Source: Scenedesmus sp. PABB004
Lineage: Eukaryota
Direction: 5' to 3'
Assembly (NCBI GenBank): GCA_014905635.1
Contig: JABVCE010000003.1
Span: 806,001-870,000, forward strand
Length of the DNA: 64,000 nt
Shown: positions 13,101 through 63,701 of the stretch, in pieces
Layout: every line of letters starts with the position of its first letter
How positions within the stretch are numbered: the first letter of the stretch is position 1
Notes under the pieces: generated by a model
Seen by the model: only the letters and a program-made list of their open reading frames with translations
Told to the model about the DNA's origin: nothing
Database searches by the model: none
Made by a program: the position numbers and the translations under genes

Positions 13101-13603
13101 GCCGACGCTCGCCGCGCCGGCGCTCGCCGCGCGCCGTGCCGCGCGCAGGAGGGCGACAGCTGGACCATCGCGTTCCACGACGCCGAGGACGCGGTGGGCT
13201 TTGGCCTGCAGGTGCGGGCCCGGTGCTGCTGACCTGAGCCTGCTGCTGGCTGCCGCGCGGCGCGCCAGCTGGGCGGCGCCGCCGCTGACCCGCCCGCCGT
13301 CGCTCCGGCCGCCGCTGACCCGCGCGCGCAGGTGCAGCAGGCGCTCGCGCAGAAGGTGTGGGGCATGCGCCTCGGCCCGAGCGACGCGGCGCTCGCGGAG
13401 CTGCGCAACATGACGGGCATGCGGGACGAGGGCTTCTCCACAAAGTACAGCGCGACGCTCATGCGCGCGAGCACGGCCTCCTCGCCGCGCGCAAGCAGCA
13501 GCGAGGGCTCGTTCGCCATGGACCGCGGCGCGCGCGGCGCCGCGGCGGCGGCGGCGGCGGCGGCGGCGGTCGCCGCCATCGAGGCGGTCGGCGCCGGCGG
13601 TGC

Positions 13604-13650
<47 letters not shown>

Positions 13651-16600
13651 CCGGCGCGCAGGGCGACGCGGGCGCCGGCGAGCGGAGCTTCACGTCGGCG
13701 TCGTGGCACGGCGGCGCGGCGAGCAGCGCGAGCAGCCACAGCGACCTCCAGCAGCTGGGCAGGTTCGGCAGCAGCGCGGGCGACCTCCTCGCGGCGCACG
13801 GCAGGCCGCCGGCGGGCGCGTCGCCCGCCAAGACCGCCGGCGGCGGCGGTGGCGAGGGCGGGTCGTTCACCGGCGCCAACGGCCACCGCGACGCGGGCGC
13901 GCCGCGCGGAGGCACGGGCGCGCCGCCGGGCGGCGCGCCTGCCGCCGTGGCCGACCGCAGCCACAGCCACAGCCACAGCGCGCCGCTGCCGGCGCCGGGG
14001 CAGGTCGCGGTGGTCCAGCCGAGCGGCGGCAGCTGGGAGATGGGCCCCGTGCCCGTGGGGCTCACCACCCAGATCATGGCGTCGCACTCTAGCTTTGGCT
14101 CCGGCCCCGGCCTCGGCGACCGCGTGACCGCGACGGGCAGCCACGTCTCGCGCCACATGAGCGAGGACCGCTCGAGCAGCCGGCTGTGGAGCGCGGTCAT
14201 GCGGCGGTTCAGCGCGCTCGGCCGCACCGGCGCGAGCTTTGGCAAGGTCGGCGGCCTCTCGGCGGACCAGCAGCCCGTGCAGGTGCTGCGCCTCGCGATC
14301 CGCGTGGGCATCGCCACGGGCGCGCTGCCGTACGCCTGCGACGTCAGCAACTGCACCGTCAAGGACCGCGCCAAGGGTGCGCCGCGCCGCGCCGCGCCCC
14401 GCCGAGCGGCGGCGGCGCCCGCAGCGAGCGCGCAGCCGGCACGCCCCGCCGCCCTCCCGCCCGCGCCGTGCGACGCCCGTGCGCCGCCGCCGCCGCCGCG
14501 GCCGCCGCAGAGCTGGTGAGCGACGTCGCGGCGGGCGGGCAGGTGCTGGTCGATGAGGGCACGTTCCTGCTCATCAAGGACAGCCTCAGCGTGCTCGGCA
14601 CGGTCAACGAGGCAGGCTACGACGACAAGATGCTGCAGCGCCTCATGCACGCCCAGGTCGTGGACATGCTGCAGCGCCGCATCGGCTGCAACGTGTGCAC
14701 AAAGTGAGGGCCGCGGACGCGGCGCCGTGCGTTGAGCGCCGCAGCGGCGGCGCCCGCGCGCGCGCCAAGCCGGGGCCGGGCGCGGGCGCCGGTGCGGCGC
14801 GCTGCTGCTCACCGCCGCCCGCCGCCGCCCGCCGCCGCCCGCCAGGGAGCACCGCGAGGCGTCGTTCACGAGCGAGGCGGCCGACCGGGGCGTGCAGGAC
14901 TACGACAACGACGCCGTCGTGGTGCACATGGGCTGCTTTGAGGTGCCCGTGGACGCCGAGGACGGCAGCCGCAACAACAGCGACGCGCACGCGGTCGACC
15001 TCGCCGCCGCCGTGGCCGGCAGGGCGCCGGCCCAGGACGCGGGCGCGCGCGACCAGGCGGCCAAGGCGGCCAAGGCGGCGGCCAAGGCGGCCAAGGCAGC
15101 CAAGGCCGCGGCGGCGGCGGCGGCCGCGGCCGCGGCGCCCGCGGCCGCGGCGGCGGACGCCGCCGGCGCGCCCGCGCGGCGGACGGTGCGGCAGCAGCTG
15201 CAGCTGTACTCTGTCGCCGCGCCGGGCATGCGGCGGCCGGCAGACAACACCGTCGACCTTCAGCGCTACCTGAGCTGGGCGGAGCCGGTCAGCATGAAGC
15301 CGGGCTGGCAGCAGATGCAAAAGGGCTTCTTCGACGCGCCAGGTGCGCGCGGCGCGGCGCGGCACGGCACGCTCGCCGACTGCGAAAGCTCGCGCCCGCG
15401 CGCGCGCGCGTGCCGACGCGCGCCCGCCGCCGCGCCCGCCGCCTGGCGCGCAGGCGCGCGCCAGGTCGACCTGTGCGCGTCGCTGCCGGGCACGGCCGCG
15501 CCGAGCCACGCGCCGCTGCCGGACGTGACGATCGTGTTTGCCTGCGTCGCGGGCGCGAGCAGCTTTACGTTCAAGCGCAGCCGCAGCGAGACGCACTTCC
15601 TGAACAAGGTCATCCGCCGCTGCCTGCTGCAGCAGCTCGCCGCCGTGCAGGACGGCGACGGCTACCTCTGCAGGCGCGGCGCGGCGCGGCTGCCTGCGCC
15701 GCGCGCGCGGGCGCGGCGCGCGGCGGCTGCCCGCCGCGCCGCCGTTCACCGCGATAGCGCCAGGCCTCCTGACGCGGCTCCCGTGCGCCCTGCCCGCCTG
15801 TCCGCCTGTCCGGCTGCCCCACGCGCCTGTGCAGGTGCCAGGAGGCAGACCTGAAGTACATGATCGCCTTTGAGCAGCCCCACCGCGCGGTGCAGTGGTG
15901 CCTGGCCGTGCAGGTGCGGCGCCGCGCCGCGCCGCGCCCTTCGCCGGCCGCTGGCCGCAGGGGAGCCTGCTGCAGCTGTTGCAGCCCGTGCTGTGCTGCA
16001 GCAGTTTGAGCAGGCTCCCCTGCGGCCCGCGCCCGCGCCCGCGCCCGCGGCGCCCGCGTGCCGCGCCCGCGTGCCGCGCCGCCCGCCCACCGCGCCGCCG
16101 CCGCGCCGCGCCGCGCAGGAGGCGCTCATGTACGTGCCCTGGCCCGCGCACGTGCTGGCGCACCCGGGCTTTGAGGAGGTCCCCGACCCCGCCACGGGGC
16201 TGCCGCTCTTCCGCGGCCCCCGCCTGCGCATGGGCCTCGCCGAGGGCCAGCCCACGAGCGTGCTGCCCGACCACACCGGGCGTGCCAACTACTTTGGCGG
16301 CAGCGTCAACCGCGCGGCGCGCTACATGGACGCCGCTGCGCACGGGGGGCAGGTGGTGACGGACGTGGAGCTGCTGCGCAAGCTCTGCCGCGTGTGGGCG
16401 GCGCAGGACCGCGAGGACAGCGTGTGCCCGGAGGGTGACAGCAACGACAGCAACGTGCAGCACGCGCCCGCGCTGTCGCGCGGCGGCAGCTCCTCCGGCC
16501 GGCACGGCTCACTGCCGCTGCCGCCGAGCGAGCACTCGCAGGCGTCGCTCGGCGGCAGCCACCACGGCGCGGCGGCGGCGGTCAGCCCGCCGCAGTCGCC

Positions 16601-22431: not shown

Positions 22432-23374
22432 TCACGCGCCGACGACGCGGCCGACCGCGCCGACGACCGCGGCGCGCACCGCCGCGAGCGCGCCCACCAC
22501 CGCCGCCCACACGCCCGCGAGCCAGTCGCCGAGCACGCCGCCCGCGCTGAACATCTGCTCGTGCAGCAGGCGATGCAGGTTGGCGATGTGCCCCGCCGGG
22601 CTCGCGCGCGGCAGCGGCACCGGCAGGTCGGCCGCCGCCGCCGCCGCCGCGGCCTGGCCCTCTGAGATGTCCTGGTACGCGGTCGCCATCGCGGCGGCCG
22701 CCGCGGCGCGGCTCTCCGCGTCGGCGACCATCTCGACCGCGCGGTTCATGCGCTGCACCGCCGCGACCATCGCGTCCTCCGCCGCCGCCTCGAGCGCAGA
22801 CTGCGGGCGCGGGCGCGCGGCGCGCATGGGCGCGCAAGCGCGCGGCCAGCGCGGCGCGGCGCGGCGTGCGCGCCGCGTCGCCGCGCGCCGCCGCCGCGGG
22901 GCGCCCTGCCCACCTGCACCGCCGACGCCGACGCCGACGCCTGCTCGGCCGCCTCGGCCGCGCGCGACGCCGCGCTGCTGGCGGCCGCAGAGTAGGCGGC
23001 CGCGCGCTGCGACGCCTCGACCGCGGCGCCGCTCGCGCGCATGGCGACGTGCGCGCGCTCGCGCAGGCTCGGCAGCGAGGGGTCGGCCGGCAGCGCCGCC
23101 AGCTCCGCCTGGCCCACCGCGCGCGCCGGCGCCTCCACCTGCACGCTCGGCAGCTCGGGCGGCGCGGCGAAGTCGAGCCGCCCCAGGTCGGCGCCCGCCC
23201 AGGGCGGCGGCATGCTGCTGAACCCCGCGTCCAGCGGGCTGGGCTGCGGCGCGCCGGGGATGCCGGCCGGCGGGAGGTCAAAGCCCGGGCCGAGGCCAAA
23301 GCCCGGCGCCGCCGTCGTCGCCGCCGCCGCGGCCGCCGCAGCGGCCTCGGGGGCCCCTCCGCCCGGCTGCTGCG

Positions 23375-23415
<41 letters not shown>

Positions 23416-24424
23416 GTGCCCACGGCAGCTGCTGCGCCGCCGCTGCCGCTGCTGCCTCTGCTCTTGTGCTTGCCCTTGATTTTGCTCTTGGGCGCCGCCT
23501 GCTCCTGCTGCTGCCGCTCCTGCTGCTGCCGCTCCTGCTGCTGCCGCTCCTGCTGCTGCCGCTCCACCACCGCCGTCACGCGGTGCTGCTGCGGCCGGGA
23601 GGTCTGGTACACGCCTGCGGGCGCCGCCGCCGGGCGCGCGGGCGGCGCGCGCGCGCGTCGGGCCCAGCGCCGGCAGCGCCGGCGCCGGCAGCGGGCGCCG
23701 GCGGCGGGCGGGACCCCCCGCGGCTCCGCGCGCGCGAGTGCCCCGCTCACGGAAGTGGTTGAGCACGCGGTACGCGCCGAAACTGAGCAGCAGGATGATG
23801 CCGAGCAGCCCCGCCAGCCCTGCAGGCGGCGCAGCGGCGCGGCGGCACAGGCGGCAGGGCAGCACGGCGTCGTCGGCGCGCGCGAGAGGACGGGCGCGGA
23901 CGCGGGCGCGCCCGGCCGCGCTCCCAGGTGCCGGCGCGCCCGACTGCGCCGCCGGCGGGCGCCGGCGGGCGGCGCCGCCGCGCGCGCATCGCTGGCAGCA
24001 GCGGCGTCGCGCGCAACTGCGCGCGGCGCGCCGCGGCGCCCGCGCGGCGGCGCGCGCGGTGCTGCGCGCGCGCACCCCAGTCGACGTCCTTGAGCGTCAG
24101 CGCCCGGGCGCCGCGCCACTCCTCCTCCTCGCCCGGCGCGGGCGCCTCGCCCCACGACTGCCCCGGCGCGGTCCCTGGCGCGCCCGCATCCACCGCATCC
24201 GCGGCGTGTCCGACATGGGCGCCGTTGGCGTCGTCCGCGGGCGCGCGCCCGGGCTCCTGCGCGGCCTGCGCGCTCAGCGCGGCGGTCGCCACGCCCGGGC
24301 CGCGCGTGCGGGCCGCCAGGAGCGGCCGGCGCAGGTCCCCAGGTCGCTGTTTGGTCAGGGGTATCCACCGCCGGCCGTGCGCGCCCAGGGCGGCGCCCTG
24401 GGGCGCGCGGCAGGCCGCGGCCAT
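22432..24424 (-). CDS. Hypothetical membrane protein, probably plastid-targeted (transit-like N-terminus, one TM, Q-rich and Ala-rich coiled-coil regions)
   Basis: Exons MAAACRAPQGAALG..LTLKDVDW, GLAGLLGIILLLSFGAYRVLNHF, GVYQTSRPQQ..SASAVQ and SALEAAAEDAMVAAVQRMNRAVE..GRVVGA*, with coding-like codon use and GT/AG ends. Internal exon structure is partly uncertain. Confidence 0.6.
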
Positions 24425-40626: not shown

Positions 40627-43474
40627 TCACCTGCCCCAGAGCACCATGTCCAGGAACACGAAGAACTGCGCCGCGATGACGAGGAGAACGAGGGCGATCA
40701 GCGCCCAGCCGCGCGCGCTGAGCCGCGACGCGCCGGCCTTGGCCTTGGCGTGGCGCGCCGCCGCGCGGTGCGCCGCCTCGCCCTCGTCGCCGCTGCCGTC
40801 GTCGCTGTCGTCCGCCTCGTCCTCGCTCTGCCCCCCGCGCTCCCACGCCGCCGCGTCGCCGGAGGGCGTGTCGTCGTCCGGCCAGCCCGCCACCGCGCCC
40901 CGCGCAAAGATGGCGCCCGCGCGCAGCAGCAGCTCGCCGTGCAGCGCCATCAGCAGCTCCGTCTCGAGCGCGCTCGCCTCCGCCTGGACCTCGCGCTCCG
41001 GGCCGGCCAGGTTGAACGCGTACTTGCCGCCGCCGGGCCGGAGCAGCTGGAACAGGCTGGCCGCGGGCCGCGCCTTGCCGTCGGCGCCGGCGCGGTGCGT
41101 GGGGTCGCGCGCGGGCGAGGCCCACGTCGGCGGCGCCGCGACGCGGCTCGAGCGCAGGAAGGGCTCCCCGCCCGCCCCGAGCTCAAACGTGTAGTCCTTG
41201 GCCACGCGGGCACAGCCGGGCGCGAGGTAGGGGTTCGGGCAGAACTCGAGCTCGACTGCAAGGCGCGGCGCGGCGCGGCGCGGCGCGGCGAGTGGGCGCG
41301 CGCGCTGCGCCGCGCGTGGGCGGCCAGGGGCCACGTGCGCCGCGCCGCGGGCCGCACGCCGTCCGCGCGCCGCGCACGTTTGCCGTGCGCCTCTCTGCTG
41401 CTGCCGGCGCCGGCCGTGATGCTCAGCCGCACGTCGGCGAGGCTCGCCAGCACCGCGGCGTCCCGGCTGCTGATCGCGAGCGCCGCCGCGTCGGCCGAGC
41501 GCAGCACGCGCAGCCAGAAGCGAGGCACGCTGGGCTCGCTCGCGCCCGGCGGCAGCAGCAGCGCCCGGCGCTTGACCGCGAGCTCCTGGCGCAGCTTGTC
41601 GCCCGCCGCGGTCGCCTCCGCGCGCTGCCGCTGCCGCTGCGCCGCGAGCTCGTCCAGCTGGGCCTGCGGGCACGCGGGCGCCGCGGGCGCTCGGCACGGG
41701 CCTCGGCCGGCCCCTCCCTGCGTCGCGCGCGCCGCCCCGCCCGCGCGCCTGGTTGTGCCGCAGCGCCGCCAGCACCGCCTGCACGGGCGGCGGGAGGTCC
41801 TCGTGGCTGCCGCCGCCAGACACGACGGCAAAGTCGTCGTCGTCCTCGTCGCTCAGGCTCTGGGCGGCGGCGGCGCGCCGCGCGGCCGGCGGTCAGGGCC
41901 AGCGGCGGGCCGCAGGCGCCCCGCGCGCGCGTGCACGGGCGCCGGCATCGCCCCCGCGCTGCGCCACAGTGGGGCGGGGCGGGGCGGCGTCGCGCGCCTG
42001 GCGGCCCGCCCACCTGCAGGGGGCCAGCCATGAAGAGCGCCGCTGCGCGCGGCAGGACCTCGCCCAGCAGCGCCGCCATCACGGCCGCGTCGGCCCGCGC
42101 CTTGGCCGACTTGGCGGCGCCGCCCTGCGAGCGCGCGGGGCACCACGCGCGTTGGAACGGCGGCGGCACCACGGACACGTCGGCAAGCAGCAGCCGGCCG
42201 CTGTTGGCACGCCCGGAGGCGCCGCGGGGCACGCGCACCGCGTCGCCCTCCCCGTCCGAGGCGTCGCTGTCGCCGCCGACCAGCGCCGCGGGGTCGTGCA
42301 GCGCGCCGCGGCGGGCCGACGTGGTGGTGTCTGGCGCAAAGAACCGGAAAAAGGAGGGGCAGGCCTTCAACCGCACGCCGGCGCCCGCCCCGTCGTCGGC
42401 GCCGCCCTTGGCCTTGCCGCCCTTCTTGCCCTTCTTGCCGCCGCCGCCCTTCCGCACCTCCTGCGCCGCGCGGGCGCGTGAGCGCGCAAGCTTGCGGGTG
42501 CTGCCCGCCGACGGCCCCTGCGCGCGGCCCAGCCCGTGCGTGGCGCCGCGCGCCCCGCGCGGCCGCGCGCCTTGACCGTCAGCTTGTGCTTGGTGTCCTT
42601 CCAGTCAATGGCGGTTGTGACCTCCAGCGCCCCCGCGTCGCCGAGGCAGCGCCGCAGCGTGGAGTTGGTGAAAAACGGGTTGGCCGCAAACGCCATCTCC
42701 AGCGTGGGCGGGCCGCCGCCTGCAGCGGCGTGGAAGCGCGGCGGTGAGCTGGCGCGCGGGCCGCCTGCAGCCCGGCCCGCCGCCTGCGGCTGCTCGGCCG
42801 CCTGCCGCCCTGCCAAAGCAGGCAGGCGCCGCCGCGTCGCGCCTGGCGGGTGCACGGCCTTGATGCTGGTGCAGTGGCTCAGCGCCAGCCTGTCCCGGCT
42901 GCTGATCTCCTCGGCCAGCCCGTCCTGCAGCGCAGCGGCGGGCAGCCGTGAGCTCGCGCGCGCGCGTGCGGCGCGCAGGCAGCGGCGGCGCGCCCTGTGC
43001 CGCCGGCGCGCCGCACGTGGTTGCAGAGTGCGTTGAGCCAGAACTGCGGCACGCCCCGGGGGCTCTTGCCCCCGCCGGCGGCCGCGGCGGCGCCGCCCTG
43101 CGGCTCAAAGCCCGCCAGCTCCTCGCTCGTCGGCAGCGCCTTGCCCGACACCAGCTCCTGCCTGCAGCGCCACGCGGCGGCTTGGTCCAGGGCTCGGGCT
43201 GCGGCGCGGCGCGGCGCGGCGCGGCGCGGCGCGCCAGCAGCGGCGACCGCGCGGCGCGGGCGGGCGCACCGGCGCTTGAACAGCGAGTCGAGCGCCTTTG
43301 CGTGGCCCGCCCCCGCCACAGCAAACGAGTCCTCGACCGCCTGCAACTGCGCGGCCACCGCCGCCTGCGCGGCCGCGGAGCAGCGGCGGTTGGCGGCCGC
43401 TGCTGCACCCGCCGCCCGCGCGGCGCCGCGCCGCACACCTCCAGCTCCTGCATGGCCTGCAGCGCGGCCTCCAT
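40627..43474 (-). CDS. Tandem NAP/SET (nucleosome assembly protein) domain protein with C-terminal transmembrane tail, multi-exon
   Basis: Domain 1: PQFWLNALCNH|DGLAEEISSRDRLALSH, FAANPFFTNSTL, IDWKDTKHKLTVK, CPSFFRFF, EVLPRAAALF. Domain 2: VPRFWLRVLRS..ISSRDAAVLASLADVR, LEFCPNPYL, SLFQLL, ELLLRAGAIF. Then an acidic tail and WALIALVLLVIAAQFFVFLDMVLWGR*. Confidence 0.8.
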
Positions 43475-43764
43475 GGCGGCGCGCTCGCGCAGCGGCGGGG
43501 CGGGTGGCTGCAGCAGTTCTGGCCGCGGACGACCGCCGCGCGGGAGCGGCGCGCAAGGCCGGTGCGCGGCGGCAGCGTGCGGGTGCGGCTTGCGGGTGCT
43601 GGTGTCGGTCCGGAGACTCTGGTCGTGCGGACAGACGGGGCCCGCGGCGGCGCGGTATAGACCGCGGGAGCGCGGCGGCGCAGCGCGGCGGTCTGGCGGC
43701 GGGCGCGGCGGCGGCGCCCGGGAGGCTGCTCCGCCGGCCCCCACACACCGGGAACTGCACCACC

Positions 43765-43923
43765 ATGGCGTCCGAGGAGTGCACAAAGCTCAGTTTGCCC
43801 TTAATCACAGAGGCGTGCAGCATTTTCTTCCGCGATGTGTACGCTGACGAATTCCTTGCCCCAATCTACAAGGGCGTCAACATGGTGGTCCTCAGGCGGC
43901 ACGTCAGCTATTTCCTCTTCCAG
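43765..43923 (+). pseudogene. Duplicated exon 1 of the truncated hemoglobin gene (orphan or alternative first exon)
   Basis: Reads the same as 44795-44953 (MASEECTKLSLPLITEACSIFFRDVYADEFLAPIYKGVNMVVLRRHVSYFLFQ) with an intact CAG|GT donor. Confidence 0.7.
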
Positions 43924-44036
43924 GTCCGCCCGCGCTCGCCGCGCATGCTGGGGCGGCGCTGCCGGCGCCACGCGCCGCTCCGGGGCGGCTCGCGCCCGCC
44001 CGGGGGCGCGACCCGCCGCGCCCGCCCGGGCGCGCA

Positions 44037-44504
44037 CGTGGTTGCAGAGAGCGTTCTGGTTCAAGAGCCAGAACTGCGGCGCGCCCCGAGGGCTCTTGCC
44101 CCCGCCGGCGGCCGCGGCGGCGCTGCCTGGCGGCTCAAAGCCCGCCAGCTCCTCGCTCGTCGGCAGCGCCTTGCCCGACACCAGCTCCTGCCTGTGGCGC
44201 CACGCGGCGGCGGCGTCCAGGGCTCGGGCTGCGGCGCGGCGCGGCGCGCCGTGCCAGCCAGCAGCGGCGACCGCGCGGCGCGGGCGGGCGCAGCGGCGCT
44301 TGAACAGCGAGTCGAGCGCCTTTGCGTGGCCCGCCCCCGCCACAGCAAACGAGTCCTCGACCGCCTGCAACTGCGCGGCCACCGCCGCCCGCGCGGCCGC
44401 GGAGCAGCGGCGGTTGGCGGCGGGCGCCGCTGCTGCACCCGCCGCCCGCGCGGCGCCGCGCCGCACACCTCCAGCTCCTGCATGGCCTGCAGCGCGGCCT
44501 CCAT
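44037..44504 (-). pseudogene. Duplicated exons 1-3 of the tandem-NAP gene (orphan or alternative 5' exons)
   Basis: MEAALQAMQELE|AAVAAQLQAVEDSF..LFKRR|QELVSGKALP..PQFWLLNQNALCNH with frame and exon-3 donor intact. Confidence 0.7.
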
Positions 44505-44794
44505 GGCGGCGCGCTCGCGCAGCGGCGGGGCGGGTGGCTGCAGCAGTTCTGGCCGCGGACGACCGCCGCGTGGGAGCGGCGCGCAAGGCCGGTGCGCGGC
44601 GGCGGCGTGCGGGTGCGGCTTGCGGGTGCTGGTGTCGGTCCGGAGACTCTGGTCGTGCGGACAGACGGGGCCCGCGGCGGCGCGGTATAGACCGCGGGAG
44701 CGCGGCGGCGCAGCGCGGCGGTCTGGCGGCGGGCGCGGCGGCGGCGCCCGGGAGGCTGCTCCGCCGGCCCCCACACACCGGGAACTGCACCACC

Positions 44795-46013
44795 ATGGCG
44801 TCCGAGGAGTGCACAAAGCTCAGTTTGCCCTTAATCACAGAGGCGTGCAGCATTTTCTTCCGCGATGTGTACGCTGACGAATTCCTTGCCCCAATCTACA
44901 AGGGCGTCAACATGGTGGTCCTCAGGCGGCACGTCAGCTATTTCCTCTTCCAGGTCCGCCCGCGCTCGCCGCGCATGCTGGGGCGGCGCTGCCGGCGCCA
45001 CGCGCCGCTCCGGGGCGGCTCGCGCCCGCCCGGGGGCGCGGCCTGGGCCGGGGGTCTCGAACCGCCGGCCGCCGGGCGCCCGCGGCCGGCGGCTGGGCGG
45101 GGGGCCGGCGCCACTGCTGCGGGCCTCACCCGACCTGCCGGTGACGCCCGCCCGCAGCTGTCCCAGTTCGAGTGCCCCATGACCCCGCGGCAGATCGAGT
45201 ACCTGCGCACCGCGCACCTGCCGGTGGTGCTGCAGCGCGGCGCGACAATGGCGCACGTCGACCGCATCGTGCAACACCTCGCGGCGGCGATGCTCTCCTG
45301 CGGCGCGCAGGTGCGCGCGCCGCCGCGGGGCGCCGCGTGGGCGCCGCCCCGCAGTCGCGCCGCCCCGTGCGCATGCGCGCGCGCGCGCAAAACTGCGCGG
45401 GCCTCACCCCGCCGCCGCCGCCGCTGCTGCCGCTGCTGCTGCTGCTGCCGCTGCGCAGGAGTCGCAGATCAACATGGTGGCCGCCAAGCTGAAGCCCTTT
45501 GTGATCATGTTCCCCGAGACCCCGCACCCCGCGCCCAAGGGCATGCGGGCGAGCATGGACGGGTCGAGCGCGTCGGACGTCGAGGCCGTCCTGCGAGAGC
45601 TGACGTGCCCCGCGGGGACGTGCGCCGACCCCGCGTCGTGCCCCGCGGCGATGGCGTGCCCCGTGGCGGCGGCGGCGCGCCCCGCAGCGGCGGCGGCGTG
45701 CCCCGCGGCGGCGGCGGCGCGCCCCGCAGCGGCGGCGGCGTGCCACGCCGGGGTGTGCGACAGCGCGGCGGATGCGGAGGGCTCGTGCCCCGTCGCGGCC
45801 GGCCCTGGCTCGTCGCCCGCCAAGCCAAAGGCCGGCTGCGGCGCGCAGCGCTGCGCCTGCGACGCGGACTGCCGGTGCGGCTGCGCGGCGAGCCCGTGCG
45901 CCGGCGCGTGCCCATGCGCCAGCGCGGCGCAGCAGGCCGTGGGCGGCGGCGGGGGCGAGCCGGCGGCCGCGAAGCCGTCGTGGCTGCAGCGCGTGTTCGG
46001 GTGCGTGCGCTGA
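44795..46013 (+). CDS. Group I-like truncated (2/2) hemoglobin fused to a Cys/Pro-rich, metallothionein-like C-terminal tail (exons 44795-44953, 45158-45310, 45459-46013; 288 aa)
   Basis: FFRDVYADEFLAPIYKGVNMVVLRRHVSYFL resembles the trHb FYxxVLAD..LAPFFxGVDMxxL pattern; LRTAHLPVV carries the proximal His; HVDRIVQHLAAAMLSCGA resembles HFDAVxxHLxxxL..GV. Three phase-0 exons with canonical GT-AG; the tail has 18 Cys. Confidence 0.8.
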
Positions 46014-60800: not shown

Positions 60801-63701
60801 GGGCAGCGCAGACGTGGCGGCGCAGGCCGGCAGCGGGCTGGGCGGCGCGCCGGCCGCGGCCGCCGCGGGCGCGGTGAGCGGCGGCGGCCAGCCCTCGACC
60901 CTCAGTGGCGCGCCGTCCAGCCGGTCTGTCACGTCGCCCCTGGGACCGGCGGGGCTGCACCTGCCGCCCCCTTCGCAGGAGGCCGAGCAGCGCGCCGCAG
61001 ACGGCGGCCCGGCGCTGTCGGCGCCCGCGCTGGCGGCAGTGGGCGGCGCCAAGCAGCCCGGCGGCCGCGACGTGGAGGACTGGCTGGCGCACCAACAGGG
61101 TCCGGCAGCCGCGCCCCAGGCGCAGCCCGGCGGCGCGCAGCAGGCGCCCGCGTCGGGTGCGGCGCCGGAGCAGCAGCAGCCGCAGCAGCAACAGCAGCAG
61201 CCGCCGCAGCAGCAGCAGGCGCCGGCGCCGCAGGCCGACGTGTTCACAGCCCAGGACTCGCCGTTCTGCGGCTTTGCCGCCCCGGCCATCGGCTCGGCCA
61301 GCGCGGGCGGCTCGCTGGGCGGCGCGCTCGGCGGCGGCAGCCTGCCGGAGGACGAGAGCCTGCCGCTCGCCGACGGCGGCCCCGCGCTGGGCGCGGCAGT
61401 GACGCTGATCTATGCCGAGGGCCTGACCCCCATGGACGCGGCGCTGCGCTCGAGCGCGACGACGCGGGCGGGCACGCTCAGCGGCGCCACGCTGCCCAGC
61501 CTCGAGGCCGGCCTGGCCAGCGGCGGCGCGCCGCGCCGGGACCCCTTTGACGCGCCGTTCCAGGAGGACAACTTCTGCAGCGCGGGGCCGTTTGGCGCGG
61601 CCGTGCGCGGCGGCGGCGGCGGCGACAACCTGGCGAGCGTCGGGCCGTTTGCCCGCGGCGGCTTCGGCGACAACCTGGCGAGCGTCAGGCCGTTTGCCCG
61701 CGGCGGTGCCGGCGGCGACAACTTGGCAAGCGTCGGGCCTTTCGCCCGCGGCGGCGGCGACAACCTGGCGAGCGTCGGGCTGTTTGCCCGCGGCGGTGCC
61801 GGCGGCGACAACTTGGCAAGCGTCGGGCCTTTCGCCCGCGGCGGCGGCGACAACCTGGCAAGCGTCGGGCCGTTTGCCCGCGGCGGTGCCGGCGGCGACA
61901 ACCTGGCGAGCGTCGGGCCGTTTGCACGCGGCGGTGCCGGCGGCGACAACTTGGCAAGCGTCGGGCCTTTCGCCCGCGGCGGCGGCGACAACCTGGCGAG
62001 CGTCGGGCCGTTTGCACGCGGCGGCGGCGGCGGCGACAACCTGGCAAGCGTCGGGCCGTTTGCCCGCGGTGGCGGCGGCGGCGGCGGCGACGACAACCTG
62101 GCGAGCGTCGGGCCATTTGCCGCAGCAGGCAGGGCCCCGCCCACCAGCATGGGCGCGTCGCCGTTCGCCACCTCGCCGCGCTCGCACCCCATCGCGGTTG
62201 CCGGCCCCGGCGGCCAGCCGGGTCTGGGCGGCGGCTACGCGGGCGGCGGCTACCTAGGTGGGGCGTACCCTGGCGGGGCGCACCCTGGTGGCGCGTTCCC
62301 GGGCGTCATGATGCCGCAGCAGGCGTACCCGCCATACGGCTACGGCCCTGGCCCCTGGGGCGGCGCCGCCATGGCGGCGCAGGGGCACATGGCGCCGCCG
62401 GCGATGCCGGGCCAGCCCGGCGGCCCCGGCGGGGCCGCGCCCGGGGCGCCTGGGCCGCAGGCCGCGCCCGGCGGCGCCCGCCAACCCTCGCCCGCGCCCC
62501 GCGGCCCGCAGCCGCGCAGCCCCGTGCTCGGCGCCGGCGGCGGCGGCGGCGAGCACCCGCCGCCCGGCGGGCTGCCGGGGACGCCGCAGGGCAGCCTCAC
62601 GCCCGGCGGCGCGGGGCCGGCGTTCAACCGCCCCCTGGATGATGCCTGCCTGAACAGGCGCCTGGGCGCGGCAGACGAGGGCGAGGACCTGATGGAGAAA
62701 GCTCAGCGCGACCTCGCGGCCTGGCAGCGCACCGGCGCGGCGGGCAGCCGCTCGGGGCGGCAGCGCGCCGCGTCGGGCTCGGCCGACACGGTGCGTGGCA
62801 GCCAGGACGAGCTCGCGCGCGTGTCGGGCGACGGCAGCGGCGCCGGCGGCGGCTTTGCGGGCGCGGGCTGGGCGCCGCCGGGGCGAGCCGGCAGCAGCTT
62901 TGACGCGCCGCCCGACGCCGCGACGCTCGCGGCGCTGGGCATGCCGGGCGGCGTCGTGCCGCCGGCCGCGTTTCGCCAGATTGCCCCGGGGGAGCGCGTC
63001 ACCGTGGTCAACCGCCCCGGCGGCCCCGGCGCTGCGCCGCCGGGCATGGACGGCCTGGGCGGCGGCGGCGGCGGCGCGATGGCGCCCTTGGGCCAGGCGC
63101 CGTGCTGGCCGCCGCCCCAGCTGGGCGCGGCGCAGCAGCAGCCCGGCGGCGGCTACGCGGACCCGGGCCAGCTGCAGCAGCAGCTGCAGCAGCAGATGCA
63201 GCAGATGCAGCAGCAGATGCAGCAGCTGCAGATGCAGCAGCAGGGGCAGCCGCCGCTGTCGCCCACGGCGCAACGCACTCAAAGCGGCTTCGGCCCGAGC
63301 GGCCCCCCAGCGGCGGCGCGCAGGCCGGCTGGGCGCACGCGTGCCTGGGCAGCGGCGAGGCGCCTGCGGTGCCGACGGACGGGCAGGGCACGGCGGCGCA
63401 GCAGCAGATGATGTGGGCGGCGATGCAGCAGCAGATGCAGCAGCAGATGCAGCAGCAGATGCAGCAGCAGATGTTCATGGCGCAGCAGCAGCAGGCGATG
63501 CAGCTCAGCCCGGGGCCGCAGCAGCAGATGATGATGCAGCAGATGCAGCAGCAGGTGCTGCAGCAGATGCAGCAGCAAATGCAGCAGCAGATGCAGCAGC
63601 TGCAGCTGCAGCAGCAGGGGCAGGCGCAGGCGCAGCAGCAGGTGCAGCAGCAGCAGGGCTACTCGCAGCAGCAGCCGCAGCAGTGGCCGCCCAACGCCTG
63701 A
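54725..63701 (+). CDS. Large TKL/Raf-like Ser/Thr kinase: N-terminal helical bundle, WD40-like propeller, kinase (~58000-60300), long disordered tail with tandem repeat and poly-Q/M end; apparent 1-nt indels near 55511, 60503 and 63305
   Basis: IGSGAEGK|VYRG, IAAKEY, LRKEVALLTTLNHPNLVRFCGVC, HGDLRSPNLFV, KIGDFGF, PRWVAPE, SDVYS|YG, ECWSQDPEARPGF; propeller blades VWTGHADGTV, AWAGDDAGIIRV, LLSGHERGQVLVW. Stop TGA 63699-63701. Confidence 0.88.
58070..58091 (-). repeat. Short interstitial plant-type telomeric repeat (CCCTAAA) in a kinase intron
   Basis: aaccctctaaaccctaaaccct. Confidence 0.6.
58589..58600 (+). repeat. Short interstitial plant-type telomeric repeat (TTTAGGG) in a kinase intron
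   Basis: tagggtttaggg. Confidence 0.55.
58714..58861 (+). ncRNA. Long unbranched stem-loop in kinase intron 58577-59002; candidate intronic pre-miRNA
   Basis: Hand-paired arms: 58719-58735/58838-58854 (17 bp perfect), 58738-58745/58828-58835, 58749-58756/58818-58825, 58762-58773/58801-58812, 58775-58780/58794-58799, 58782-58784/58790-58792, with a small terminal loop. Several G:U pairs on the + strand; GC much lower than the flanking intron. Confidence 0.65.
61609..62124 (+). repeat. Coding minisatellite: 11 copies (mostly 42-48 bp) encoding G(3-7)-DNLASVGPFAR
   Basis: ggcgacaacctggcgagcgtcgggccgtttgcccgcggc repeated with mostly synonymous variation and in-frame length changes. Confidence 0.95.

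Follow-up and report, generated by a model that had tools for sequence, protein, structure and literature searches.

What does a truncated hemoglobin gene gain from a long, cysteine-rich tail, and is that tail a metal-binding domain? The question is raised by positions 44795-46013 of a 64-kb window (the whole stretch of DNA that was analysed, 64,000 nucleotides of contig JABVCE010000003.1) from the green alga Scenedesmus sp. PABB004. An initial annotation, made from the sequence alone, had placed there a three-exon gene for a truncated hemoglobin fused to Cys-Pro (CP) repeats and a metallothionein-like run of nine cysteines, and had proposed that the product might sense nitric oxide (NO) or redox changes and couple them to metal, or be a globin with a built-in thiol/metal buffer. 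Green-algal truncated hemoglobins have been tied to NO handling in nitrogen assimilation and in hypoxia (excerpts of PMC7082302). Our results indicate that the locus is a transcribed three-exon gene, which the public annotation leaves unnamed and 39 residues too short. Its product is probably best explained as a divergent group-I 2-on-2 (2/2) hemoglobin followed by a disordered, fast-evolving extension in which three short islands are conserved. Nothing shows that the extra cysteines of this extension form a dedicated metallothionein domain.

Gene structure and transcription

The window as a whole is ~78% G+C, and because all six frames are open at this composition, lists of open reading frames are useless in it. 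Evidence from RNA comes from one sequencing run that contained part of the gene. A 257-nt contig of a freshwater metatranscriptome maps with 0 mismatches to 43871-43920, 45155-45311 and 45462-45509, with GT..AG joints; the first of these stretches corresponds to the end of exon 1, is identical to 44901-44950 and fits both copies of that exon (Table 1). Because the contig joins exon 1, exon 2 and exon 3 without mismatch, both splice junctions exist in RNA, including the join of exon 2 to exon 3. The three-exon gene and length of 288 residues first put forward prove accurate to the base. The protein obtained by joining the exons by coordinates with a script contains 22 cysteines. The remaining RNA matches, 35-nt GC-rich stretches with 3-5 mismatches of which most diverge beyond, were taken to come from other organisms and are silent on the tail.

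The gene is present in the public databases in a shortened form. When exons 1 and 2 were read in frame straight through intron 1 and the product was used as a protein query, five proteins matched at E<=0.01 among 1854 candidates, and the top match was the 249-residue hypothetical protein HT031_001627 of Scenedesmus sp. PABB004 (KAF8069511.1, hereafter P0001), which is 100% identical. This NCBI model has both junctions and the stop as in the 288-residue model, but it starts at Met40 and is without the 39 N-terminal residues (window 44795-44911), B helix included. These residues align well with the N-termini of homologs, and exon 1 aligns over its full length with those of P0003, P0006 and P0009.

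Intron positions are conserved in the family, though the public gene models are poor. The site of intron 1 is common to relatives whose models P0004 and P0005 run into the intron after ...YFILQ, and that of intron 2 to P0002, P0012 and P0014, which run into it at G-A-[QE]. Such read-through is frequent in family models (P0002, P0012, P0014, P0004, P0005, P0007, P0037 and P0040), some of which also read through a further intron, after I-F-K, that is absent from the PABB004 gene. Retention of intron 1 in the latter would put 68 residues into the middle of the E helix and would not truncate the protein.

The composition of exon 3 fits that of coding sequence. The in-frame G+C content at third codon positions (GC3) is 0.90-1.00 in every 30-codon window, that at first and second positions (GC1 and GC2) is lower in most of them, and directly past the TGA the G+C content falls and sequence resembling an untranslated region (UTR) begins. 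Moreover, exon 3 keeps its frame throughout, as shown by a conserved C-terminal motif (island 3, see below) that is read in the same frame as the globin.

Relationship to truncated hemoglobins

An exhaustive phmmer search with P0001 against 1.84 billion representatives returned 28 proteins at E<=0.001, of which 11 reached E<=1e-10 and only one, P0001 itself, E<=1e-30; the homologs matched at E 1.7e-17 to 1e-10. Named homologs come from Tetradesmus obliquus, with three paralogs (P0006; P0008; P0009/P0034), Scenedesmus sp. NREL 46B-D3 (P0007, P0035) and Hariotina reticulata (P0003); the remaining ones are JGI, ENA or Logan records.

Because the PABB004 protein by itself is a weak globin match, its assignment to the truncated hemoglobins rests on a chain of homology. 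Four homologs, 45-52% identical to the PABB004 protein, pass the gathering cut-off of 21 bits for the Pfam model PF01152 Bac_globin (P0006 with 29.8 bits, P0035 with 28.2, P0002 with 22.5 and P0003 with 21.7), and P0003 as a single query matches Chlamydomonas THB4 at 9e-6. A family profile of 14 rows, P0001 and exon 1 of the window among them, matches THB4 (6.4e-9), the Synechocystis cyanoglobin GlbN (8.4e-8), THB11 (8.8e-8), THB1 (3.4e-7) and HbN of M. tuberculosis (1.6e-5), and globins make up 20 of the 21 matches listed. The predicted fold of the Tetradesmus homolog P0006 points the same way. Its AlphaFold2 (AF2) model has a predicted local distance difference test score (pLDDT) of >=87 across residues 1-120, and a Foldseek search with this model gave nine matches at E<=0.001, all of them group-I truncated hemoglobins and HbN among them, with THB4 as the best (template modelling score, TM, 0.76; E 2.1e-4). 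All nine invariant columns of the family are kept in the PABB004 protein.

Judged by homology, the protein is a member of this family, so that the truncated hemoglobin proposed at the outset is supported through the homologs, the family profile and the P0006 fold. Residues ~9-124 thus probably form a divergent group-I (N-type) 2/2 hemoglobin, belonging to a small clade in Scenedesmaceae and a few other green algae, and they would be expected to bind heme. The globin tree does not show which relative is the ortholog, the P0006/P0035 group, with which three islands of the tail are shared, or P0008, with which Phe-Phe at B9-B10 and a Q-F-E-C-P motif are shared.

Residues of the heme pocket

Pocket residues were read from an alignment of the joined protein with ten homologs. 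Three positions are the same in 11 out of 11 sequences, namely the proximal F8 histidine (His73 in L-R-T-A-H, aligned with the F8 His of cyanoglobin in Y-M-R-E-A-H), His at E10 (His46 here) and Leu at E7. Val at E11 and Phe at E14 are each found in 10 out of 11. The usual Tyr at B10 (Phe-Tyr at B9-B10, ligand stabilizing) is present in eight of the ten homologs, and is replaced by Phe in the PABB004 protein (Phe21-Phe22) and also in T. obliquus P0008. At CD1 the PABB004 copy alone has Tyr, while all ten homologs have Phe. The family alignment confirms the proximal histidine and the B10 Phe that had been noticed initially; the invariant E10 His and the CD1 Tyr had been missed, and these two features, with the apparent shift of the tyrosine from B10 to CD1, seem more telling than the B10 Phe itself.

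The E10 histidine can be placed against residues of known function. The family motif L-R-x-H aligns on Q-R-A-H of cyanoglobin and L-I-A-K of THB4, and L-R-R-H of the window on Q-R-R-K of THB1. We take the ligating distal histidine of GlbN to be its His46. An E10 residue may coordinate the iron, as in GlbN, whose distal histidine ligates it in an endogenous hexacoordinate state (excerpts of PMC11904497), and E10 Lys is the sixth ligand in THB1, THB2 and THB4 (excerpts of PMC7082302). Since the E10 His stands at the ligating position of the GlbN histidine and the THB lysine, we infer that the resting heme would be bis-histidyl and hexacoordinate.

The nearest known systems resemble the clade only in part. 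THB4 (PDB 6bme) and THB1 (4xdi/6cii) are likewise green-algal group-I proteins with a proximal F8 His and an ionizable E10 residue, and THB4 is the best match of the family in both sequence and fold. However, the clade has His instead of Lys at E10, the PABB004 copy has Phe at B10, and identity is just ~19-26%. Compared with THB1, Leu E7 and Val E11 take the place of polar residues. Moreover, THB1 and THB4 are single domains with no long tail, whereas the PABB004 protein has one. GlbN (Synechocystis 1s69/1mwb/2hz2; Synechococcus 2ksc) shares the group-I fold and His E10, but it has Tyr B10, Gln at E7 and E11 and no extension, in contrast to Leu E7 and Val E11 of the clade. The heme-His cross-link of GlbN uses a histidine in the H helix, and this has no counterpart in the H helix of the clade.

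Conserved islands in a tail predicted to be disordered

The region that follows the globin is predicted to be largely disordered. In the AF2 model of P0001, pLDDT is <50 over most of residues 129-231, and the tail forms helices at 104-113 and 240-246 (143-152 and 279-285 of the full protein). The P0006 tail is also disordered, with one C-terminal helix, and in neither model is the tail docked on the globin. No homolog of the whole tail was found: 27 out of the 28 phmmer matches align via the globin part only, the 28th being the protein itself; a tail-only word-indexed search (P0001 residues 86-249) recovered only itself among 8000 scored candidates; and the ESM Atlas gave no usable match for P0001 residues 110-249, its structural rows being unrelated bacterial and viral proteins at TM <=0.31.

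When the 11 tails downstream of the H-helix motif were aligned, three islands emerged from this variable background. In island 1, a helix (pLDDT about 50-55 in the P0001 model) with the pattern D-x-x-x-V-L-R is followed within four residues by C-P. A CP directly after this helix is present in four of the 11 tails (P0001, P0006, P0035 and P0011), and a helix motif D-G-x-x-[VI]-[VLM]-L is also found in P0003, P0007 and P0034. Island 2 is a C-x4-C motif, whose aligned counterparts are C-G-S-S-I-C in T. obliquus P0006 and C-C-S-S-I-C in Scenedesmus NREL 46B-D3 P0035. Island 3 is the amphipathic C-terminal end already noted initially, with a helix at pLDDT about 66 in the P0001 model. Its motif, [K]-x-W-[LAF]-[KQR]-[RKA]-[MVL]-[LFVI], forms the C-terminus of six of the 11 tails (P0001, P0006, P0035, P0010, P0016 and P0011), so that this end proves to be not only real but also conserved. 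Some of the five tails that lack it look like incomplete or misjoined models; P0007 is marked as partial, and P0009 and P0034 are one gene. A Cys two or three residues past the motif occurs here (Cys286) and in P0010/P0016 only. The possibility of a C-terminal CaaX prenylation box was rejected, the cysteine being third from the end instead of fourth. Between the islands the spacers vary freely among species, being Gln-rich in Tetradesmus and rich in Ala, Pro, Gly and Cys in PABB004.

Cysteine content of the tail

The numbers given initially for the tail, 18 cysteines, six CP dipeptides and a run of nine cysteines in 27 residues (231-257), are confirmed; all 18 cysteines lie in exon 3 and every one of them is encoded by TGC. 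In 167-184 residues they amount to ~11%, versus 1.8% in 23 coding-like stretches of 60 codons each, crudely chosen from the same DNA, a ~six-fold excess over this crude local baseline. Residue shuffles of the tail reached nine Cys in 27 residues in 145 out of 20000 cases, six CP in 108 out of 20000 and four CxC in 1324 out of 20000. Three of the six CP are not independent, because they lie within a 21-nt tandem repeat. The nine-Cys run is an insert between islands 2 and 3, with pLDDT mostly <55, an in-frame GC3 of 0.97 and DNA that is not a simple repeat; with ~30% Cys, CxC motifs and no aromatic residues it is metallothionein-like in composition.

Two comparisons put this composition in perspective. 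The six frames of the window contain 16 regions with at least 8 Cys per 27 residues, mostly microsatellites of the (TGC)n/(GCA)n type, with up to 19 Cys in 27; examples of such Cys-dense frames lie at 13547-13711(-), 23314-23619(+), 61107-61271(-) and 63156-63658(-). The other ten tails of the family, of 37-261 residues, have 0-4 Cys each. The nine-Cys run itself is in no relative, whether among the phmmer matches, in the tail-only search or in the ten aligned tails, the closest relative having ~50% globin identity. Scans of metagenome contigs for closer relatives gave 592 pattern stretches for P0001 and 157 for a small family alignment, none of them confirmed (by tblastn for P0001). It had been asked whether the tail cysteines are conserved at all: 15 of the 18 are not, but Cys154, Cys199 and Cys204 are shared with the Tetradesmus/NREL 46B-D3 group. 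The run and the Ala-rich CP heptads thus appear to be lineage-specific among the sampled relatives, which are ~50% identical at the closest. As a separate observation, P0034 (WIA08758.1, T. obliquus) carries in its last 40 residues an R-C-R-C-R-C run comparable to C-R-C-G-C of the PABB004 tail, which may be a gene-model artefact, as P0009, the other model of the same gene, ends differently.

It would be tempting to see in the nine-Cys run, perhaps with other tail cysteines, a functional metallothionein-like cluster that couples NO or redox changes at the heme to metal release or provides a built-in thiol/metal buffer. Like plant, algal and animal beta-domain metallothioneins, the run is roughly one-third Cys across 27 residues, has CxC motifs (four of them), contains no aromatic residues and has no predicted fold, and it also lacks His. 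Its in-frame, non-repeat DNA, the rarity of such clustering among shuffles and the six-fold excess of tail cysteines speak for this idea. Moreover, because metallothioneins are short and diverse and have a metal-dependent fold, missed hidden Markov model (HMM) matches and low pLDDT are weak counter-evidence. However, in scans to E<=10, metallothionein models included, no Pfam match was found for 45828-45926, for 45600-46010 (the last 137 residues) or for all of exon 3, although the HMMER filters discard most matches above ~0.1. Neither the ESM Atlas nor AF2 offers a structure, and the cluster would sit within a 288-residue hemoprotein rather than in a free small protein. Its confinement to one sequence, its position as an insert between conserved islands in a tail partly built of repeats and the commonness of Cys-dense frames in the 64 kb also count against it. 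In the open-access full-text literature, judged by title and abstract, no fusion of a truncated hemoglobin with a metallothionein was found. We therefore think a working metallothionein-like cluster rather unlikely; the idea of a metallothionein or NO-metal sensor draws support neither from homology nor from conservation, and NO-to-metal coupling is speculation.

Another possibility is that the conserved residues, and not the nine-Cys run, are what matters: the CP of island 1 and the C-x4-C could act, next to the C-terminal anchor, as a heme-regulatory motif or thiol-disulfide switch for redox-dependent heme capture and hand-over or for iron ligation, with the CP heptads multiplying its capacity. 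A heme-regulatory motif consists of a CP within a flexible stretch, in most cases with a hydrophobic residue next in line. Heme oxygenase-2 reportedly binds heme via Cys-Pro motifs on a flexible tail, and the human protein has a similar layout, with a heme-binding core, a disordered CP tail and a hydrophobic or amphipathic C-terminal anchor. The resemblance is one of layout only; heme oxygenase-2 is an unrelated protein with another core fold and chemistry, and half of the CP in the PABB004 tail are repeat copies. Within the family, the CP after the island-1 helix spans three lineages (P0001; P0006/P0035; P0011), at least one CP is present in six of the 11 tails despite just 2-4 Cys, the C-x4-C is kept relative to the P0006/P0035 pair at ~50% globin identity, and six CP were rare among the shuffles. 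Yet five of the 11 tails have no CP, including that of P0016 although its close relative P0010 has one, and the composition favors Pro and Cys codons (CCC, TGC). A bulky hydrophobic residue follows the CP in only two of six cases (CPV), the others being CPA (three times), CPC and CPA-G; all six lie in a region with pLDDT <50-55, and AF2 leaves the tail undocked from the globin. No truncated hemoglobin with a heme-regulatory motif was found in the open-access literature. Such a switch would be conceivable, but we give it little probability. Among the relatives, the volvocine alga Astrephomene gubernaculifera has a five-domain tandem truncated hemoglobin (P0020, GFR44458.1) whose residues 1-30 start with M-G-C and form an Ala/Ser/Pro-rich N-terminal extension; the three CP of this extension are reminiscent of the CP stretch of PABB004 and would suit the switch.

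That the cysteine-rich peptide is never made in quantity, part of exon 3 being a hidden in-frame intron or untranslated, or the gene a fast-evolving non-functional paralog, is very improbable. In favor of this reading, RNA cover ends at 45509, the branch is long, the B10 Tyr is lost, the single-sequence globin signal is weak, exon 1 lies within a tandem duplication and the low-complexity DNA is open in all frames. Against it, a hidden intron could leave the C-terminal motif in frame with the H helix only if its length were divisible by 3, codon-position composition along most of exon 3 and the change directly after the TGA fit a coding region, a spliced and 100% identical transcript was recovered from an environmental RNA sample, and the F8 His, the E10 His and the nine invariant family columns are kept.

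Duplicated first exon and neighboring gene

Exon 1 occurs twice, identically, within a tandem duplication with a unit of 1030 bp, the copies lying at about 43012-44010 and 44042-45040. The duplication takes in exon 1 together with ~85 nt from the start of intron 1 and, on the other side, the upstream region and the 5' end of a minus-strand neighbor. The last ~600 nt of the copies are identical, and their first part is ~94% identical with small indels, a pattern that argues for a real duplication with conversion and not for an assembly artefact. The divergent neighbor (43016-43166, minus strand, with a duplicate near 44046-44200) looks like a nucleosome-assembly-protein (NAP) gene, its match to PF00956 over a P-Q-F-W-L-L-N stretch being sub-threshold (20.6 bits, E 2.9e-4, against a required 28.6 bits). 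This neighbor and the globin gene would have a bidirectional promoter region in common.

Table 1. Features of the globin locus, in coordinates of the 64-kb window
Feature	Coordinates	Strand	Description
Second exon 1	43765-43923	+	Identical copy, inside the 1030-bp tandem duplication
Exon 1	44795-44953	+	159 nt, 53 codons, ATG at 44795; pre-B stretch, B helix with Phe21-Phe22 (B9-B10), Tyr35 (CD1), first half of E helix with Leu43 (E7), His46 (E10), Val47 (E11) and Phe50 (E14)
Intron 1	44954-45157	+	GT..AG, 204 nt, in frame, stop-free; skipped in RNA contig
Exon 2	45158-45310	+	153 nt, 51 codons; end of E helix, F helix with proximal His73 (LRTAH), G helix; RNA contig covers all, 0 mismatches
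Intron 2	45311-45458	+	GT..AG, 148 nt; contains (GCC/GCT)n run; skipped in RNA contig
Exon 3	45459-46013	+	184 codons (552 nt) plus TGA; 18 Cys, 6 CP
Globin H helix, residues 105-124	45459-45518	+	Start of exon 3; ends in family motif K-L-x-P-[LFV]-x-x-x-F-P
Island 1, residues 143-155	45573-45611	+	Helix S-D-V-E-A-V-L-R-E-L then T-C-P (Cys154-Pro155)
21-nt (7-residue) tandem repeat	45624-45770	+	Five copies of A-A-x-A-[CR]-[PH]-x; TGC (Cys) and CGC (Arg) alternating; three of the six CP
Island 2	45741-45758	+	C-H-A-G-V-C (Cys199, Cys204), C-x4-C then acidic residues; in 3 of 11 tails
Nine-Cys cluster, residues 231-257	45837-45917	+	9 Cys in 27 residues (CAC, CRCGC, CPC); no F, Y, W or H
Island 3 and stop	45972-46013	+	K-P-S-W-L-Q-R-V-F-G-C-V-R then TGA; amphipathic helix 279-285, Cys286 adjoining

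Discussion

We suggest that the locus encodes a divergent group-I hemoglobin with a disordered extension on which three islands are strung. The heme would hang from His73 and face a distal side that is apolar (Leu E7, Val E11 and Phe E14) except for the clade-invariant His E10; with the resting heme held by two histidines, the protein would be fit for electron transfer and for NO or nitrite chemistry, rather than for O2 storage. In the PABB004 copy alone, the pocket tyrosine would have moved from B10, now Phe, to CD1. Residues ~125-288 would be an intrinsically disordered low-complexity extension of the kind known in Chlamydomonas THBs. Its islands would be the helix with Cys-Pro behind it, the C-x4-C pair and, at the C-terminus, a basic amphipathic W-x-x-R helix that has a Cys next to it and may serve as a docking, membrane or oligomerization element. 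We propose that the spacers have been filled with Ala/Pro/Gly/Cys sequence in this very GC-rich species, partly via the 21-nt repeat with its CGC/TGC differences between copies. The extra cysteines would make the tail chemically reactive toward thiols, metals or heme, and the tail may have a function that involves metal or heme.

Several observations weigh against this explanation. The globin signal of the PABB004 sequence taken singly is faint. The Pfam search proposed at the outset gave 14.4 bits for Bac_globin (E 0.044) with the read-through of exon 1, intron 1 and exon 2, which is under the cut-off of 21, and no match of any kind for single exons or for P0001; in the case of P0001 this is because the N-terminal 39 residues with the B helix are omitted. 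The best PDB match was THB4 at E 0.025 with the read-through query, and THB11 at E 0.51 with P0001. An AlphaFold check had likewise been proposed: in the N-terminally short P0001, without the B helix, the E-H helices are modelled with pLDDT 76-93, and the tail is predicted to be disordered. With this model Foldseek found nothing at E<=0.001, the best matches being THB4 (E 0.85, TM 0.51) and then THB11. Gly-Gly hinges at the AB and EF corners are typical of truncated hemoglobins, and Gly-Gly is at neither site in any of the 14 aligned rows, F-G-G of cyanoglobin being replaced by F-[DE]-x-P in the clade. In the family tree the PABB004 protein has a long branch (0.93, compared with 0.05-0.23 in Tetradesmus and Hariotina copies) and lies in a polytomy, six of nine inner branches being open; a loss of function is therefore conceivable. 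The RNA contig reaches only the first ~51 nt of exon 3, with no clean RNA over 45510-46013. Finally, that the spacers are mere filler sits poorly with the six-fold cysteine excess, with the 145 in 20000 shuffles, with the non-repeat DNA of the cluster and with the three tail cysteines that lie in conserved islands.

A globin followed by a long tail is a known algal layout, and the globin part adds a divergent new member to an established family. Of the twelve 2/2 hemoglobins of Chlamydomonas, several have C-terminal extensions of 225-536 residues; such extensions, as in THB11, are flexible, promote mixtures of oligomers and raise or modulate nitrite reduction (excerpts of PMC7082302). In this respect the PABB004 protein is like THB10 and THB11 (6td7), the latter being among the best sequence matches of the family. 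However, THB11 has Lys at E10 and its reduced form is pentacoordinate, the searches revealed no sequence similarity of the PABB004 tail to those of THB10/THB11, and neither a cysteine content of ~11% nor islands are mentioned for THB10/THB11 in the excerpts of PMC7082302. Thus, the fusion that had been called undescribed has precedents in its globin-plus-tail layout, and its cysteine-rich tail is the part for which no description was found. The same holds, in the open-access literature, for a eukaryotic clade with His at E10 and for the three tail islands. On truncated hemoglobins of Scenedesmus, that literature yielded only reviews on nitrogen and NO or unrelated work, and the available part of a paper on microalgal metal-binding proteins that names strain PABB004 makes no mention of globins or of this protein (PMC9405338).

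It could further be hypothesized that the tails of the clade carry a conserved cysteine control module made up of the CP after the helix, the C-x4-C and the anchor helix. By taking up a second heme or a metal, or through a disulfide, this module would govern how the bis-histidyl heme is coordinated and how it reacts with NO and nitrite. PABB004 would then have amplified this module into an 18-Cys metal/heme buffer, a natural chimera of a globin and a metallothionein-like element. This idea is a long shot. Whether or not it holds, experiments would do better to target the conserved Cys-Pro, the C-x4-C and the C-terminal helix than the nine-Cys run.

In summary, the divergent hemoglobin of PABB004 and its relatives define a small clade with a GlbN-like His E10 in a eukaryote. 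There is also a lesson in composition: at 78% G+C, unless a Cys-rich run is conserved, its presence in a disordered spacer built of repeats says little in favor of a metal domain. Searches of open-access full text revealed no report of a heme domain that binds gas and is coupled to a thiolate buffer; if the tail does bind metal or heme, the protein would be a natural example of one. The tail reduces to three short islands, which together with the heme pocket offer defined handles for testing (His46, Cys154, Cys199/204 and the last 13 residues).

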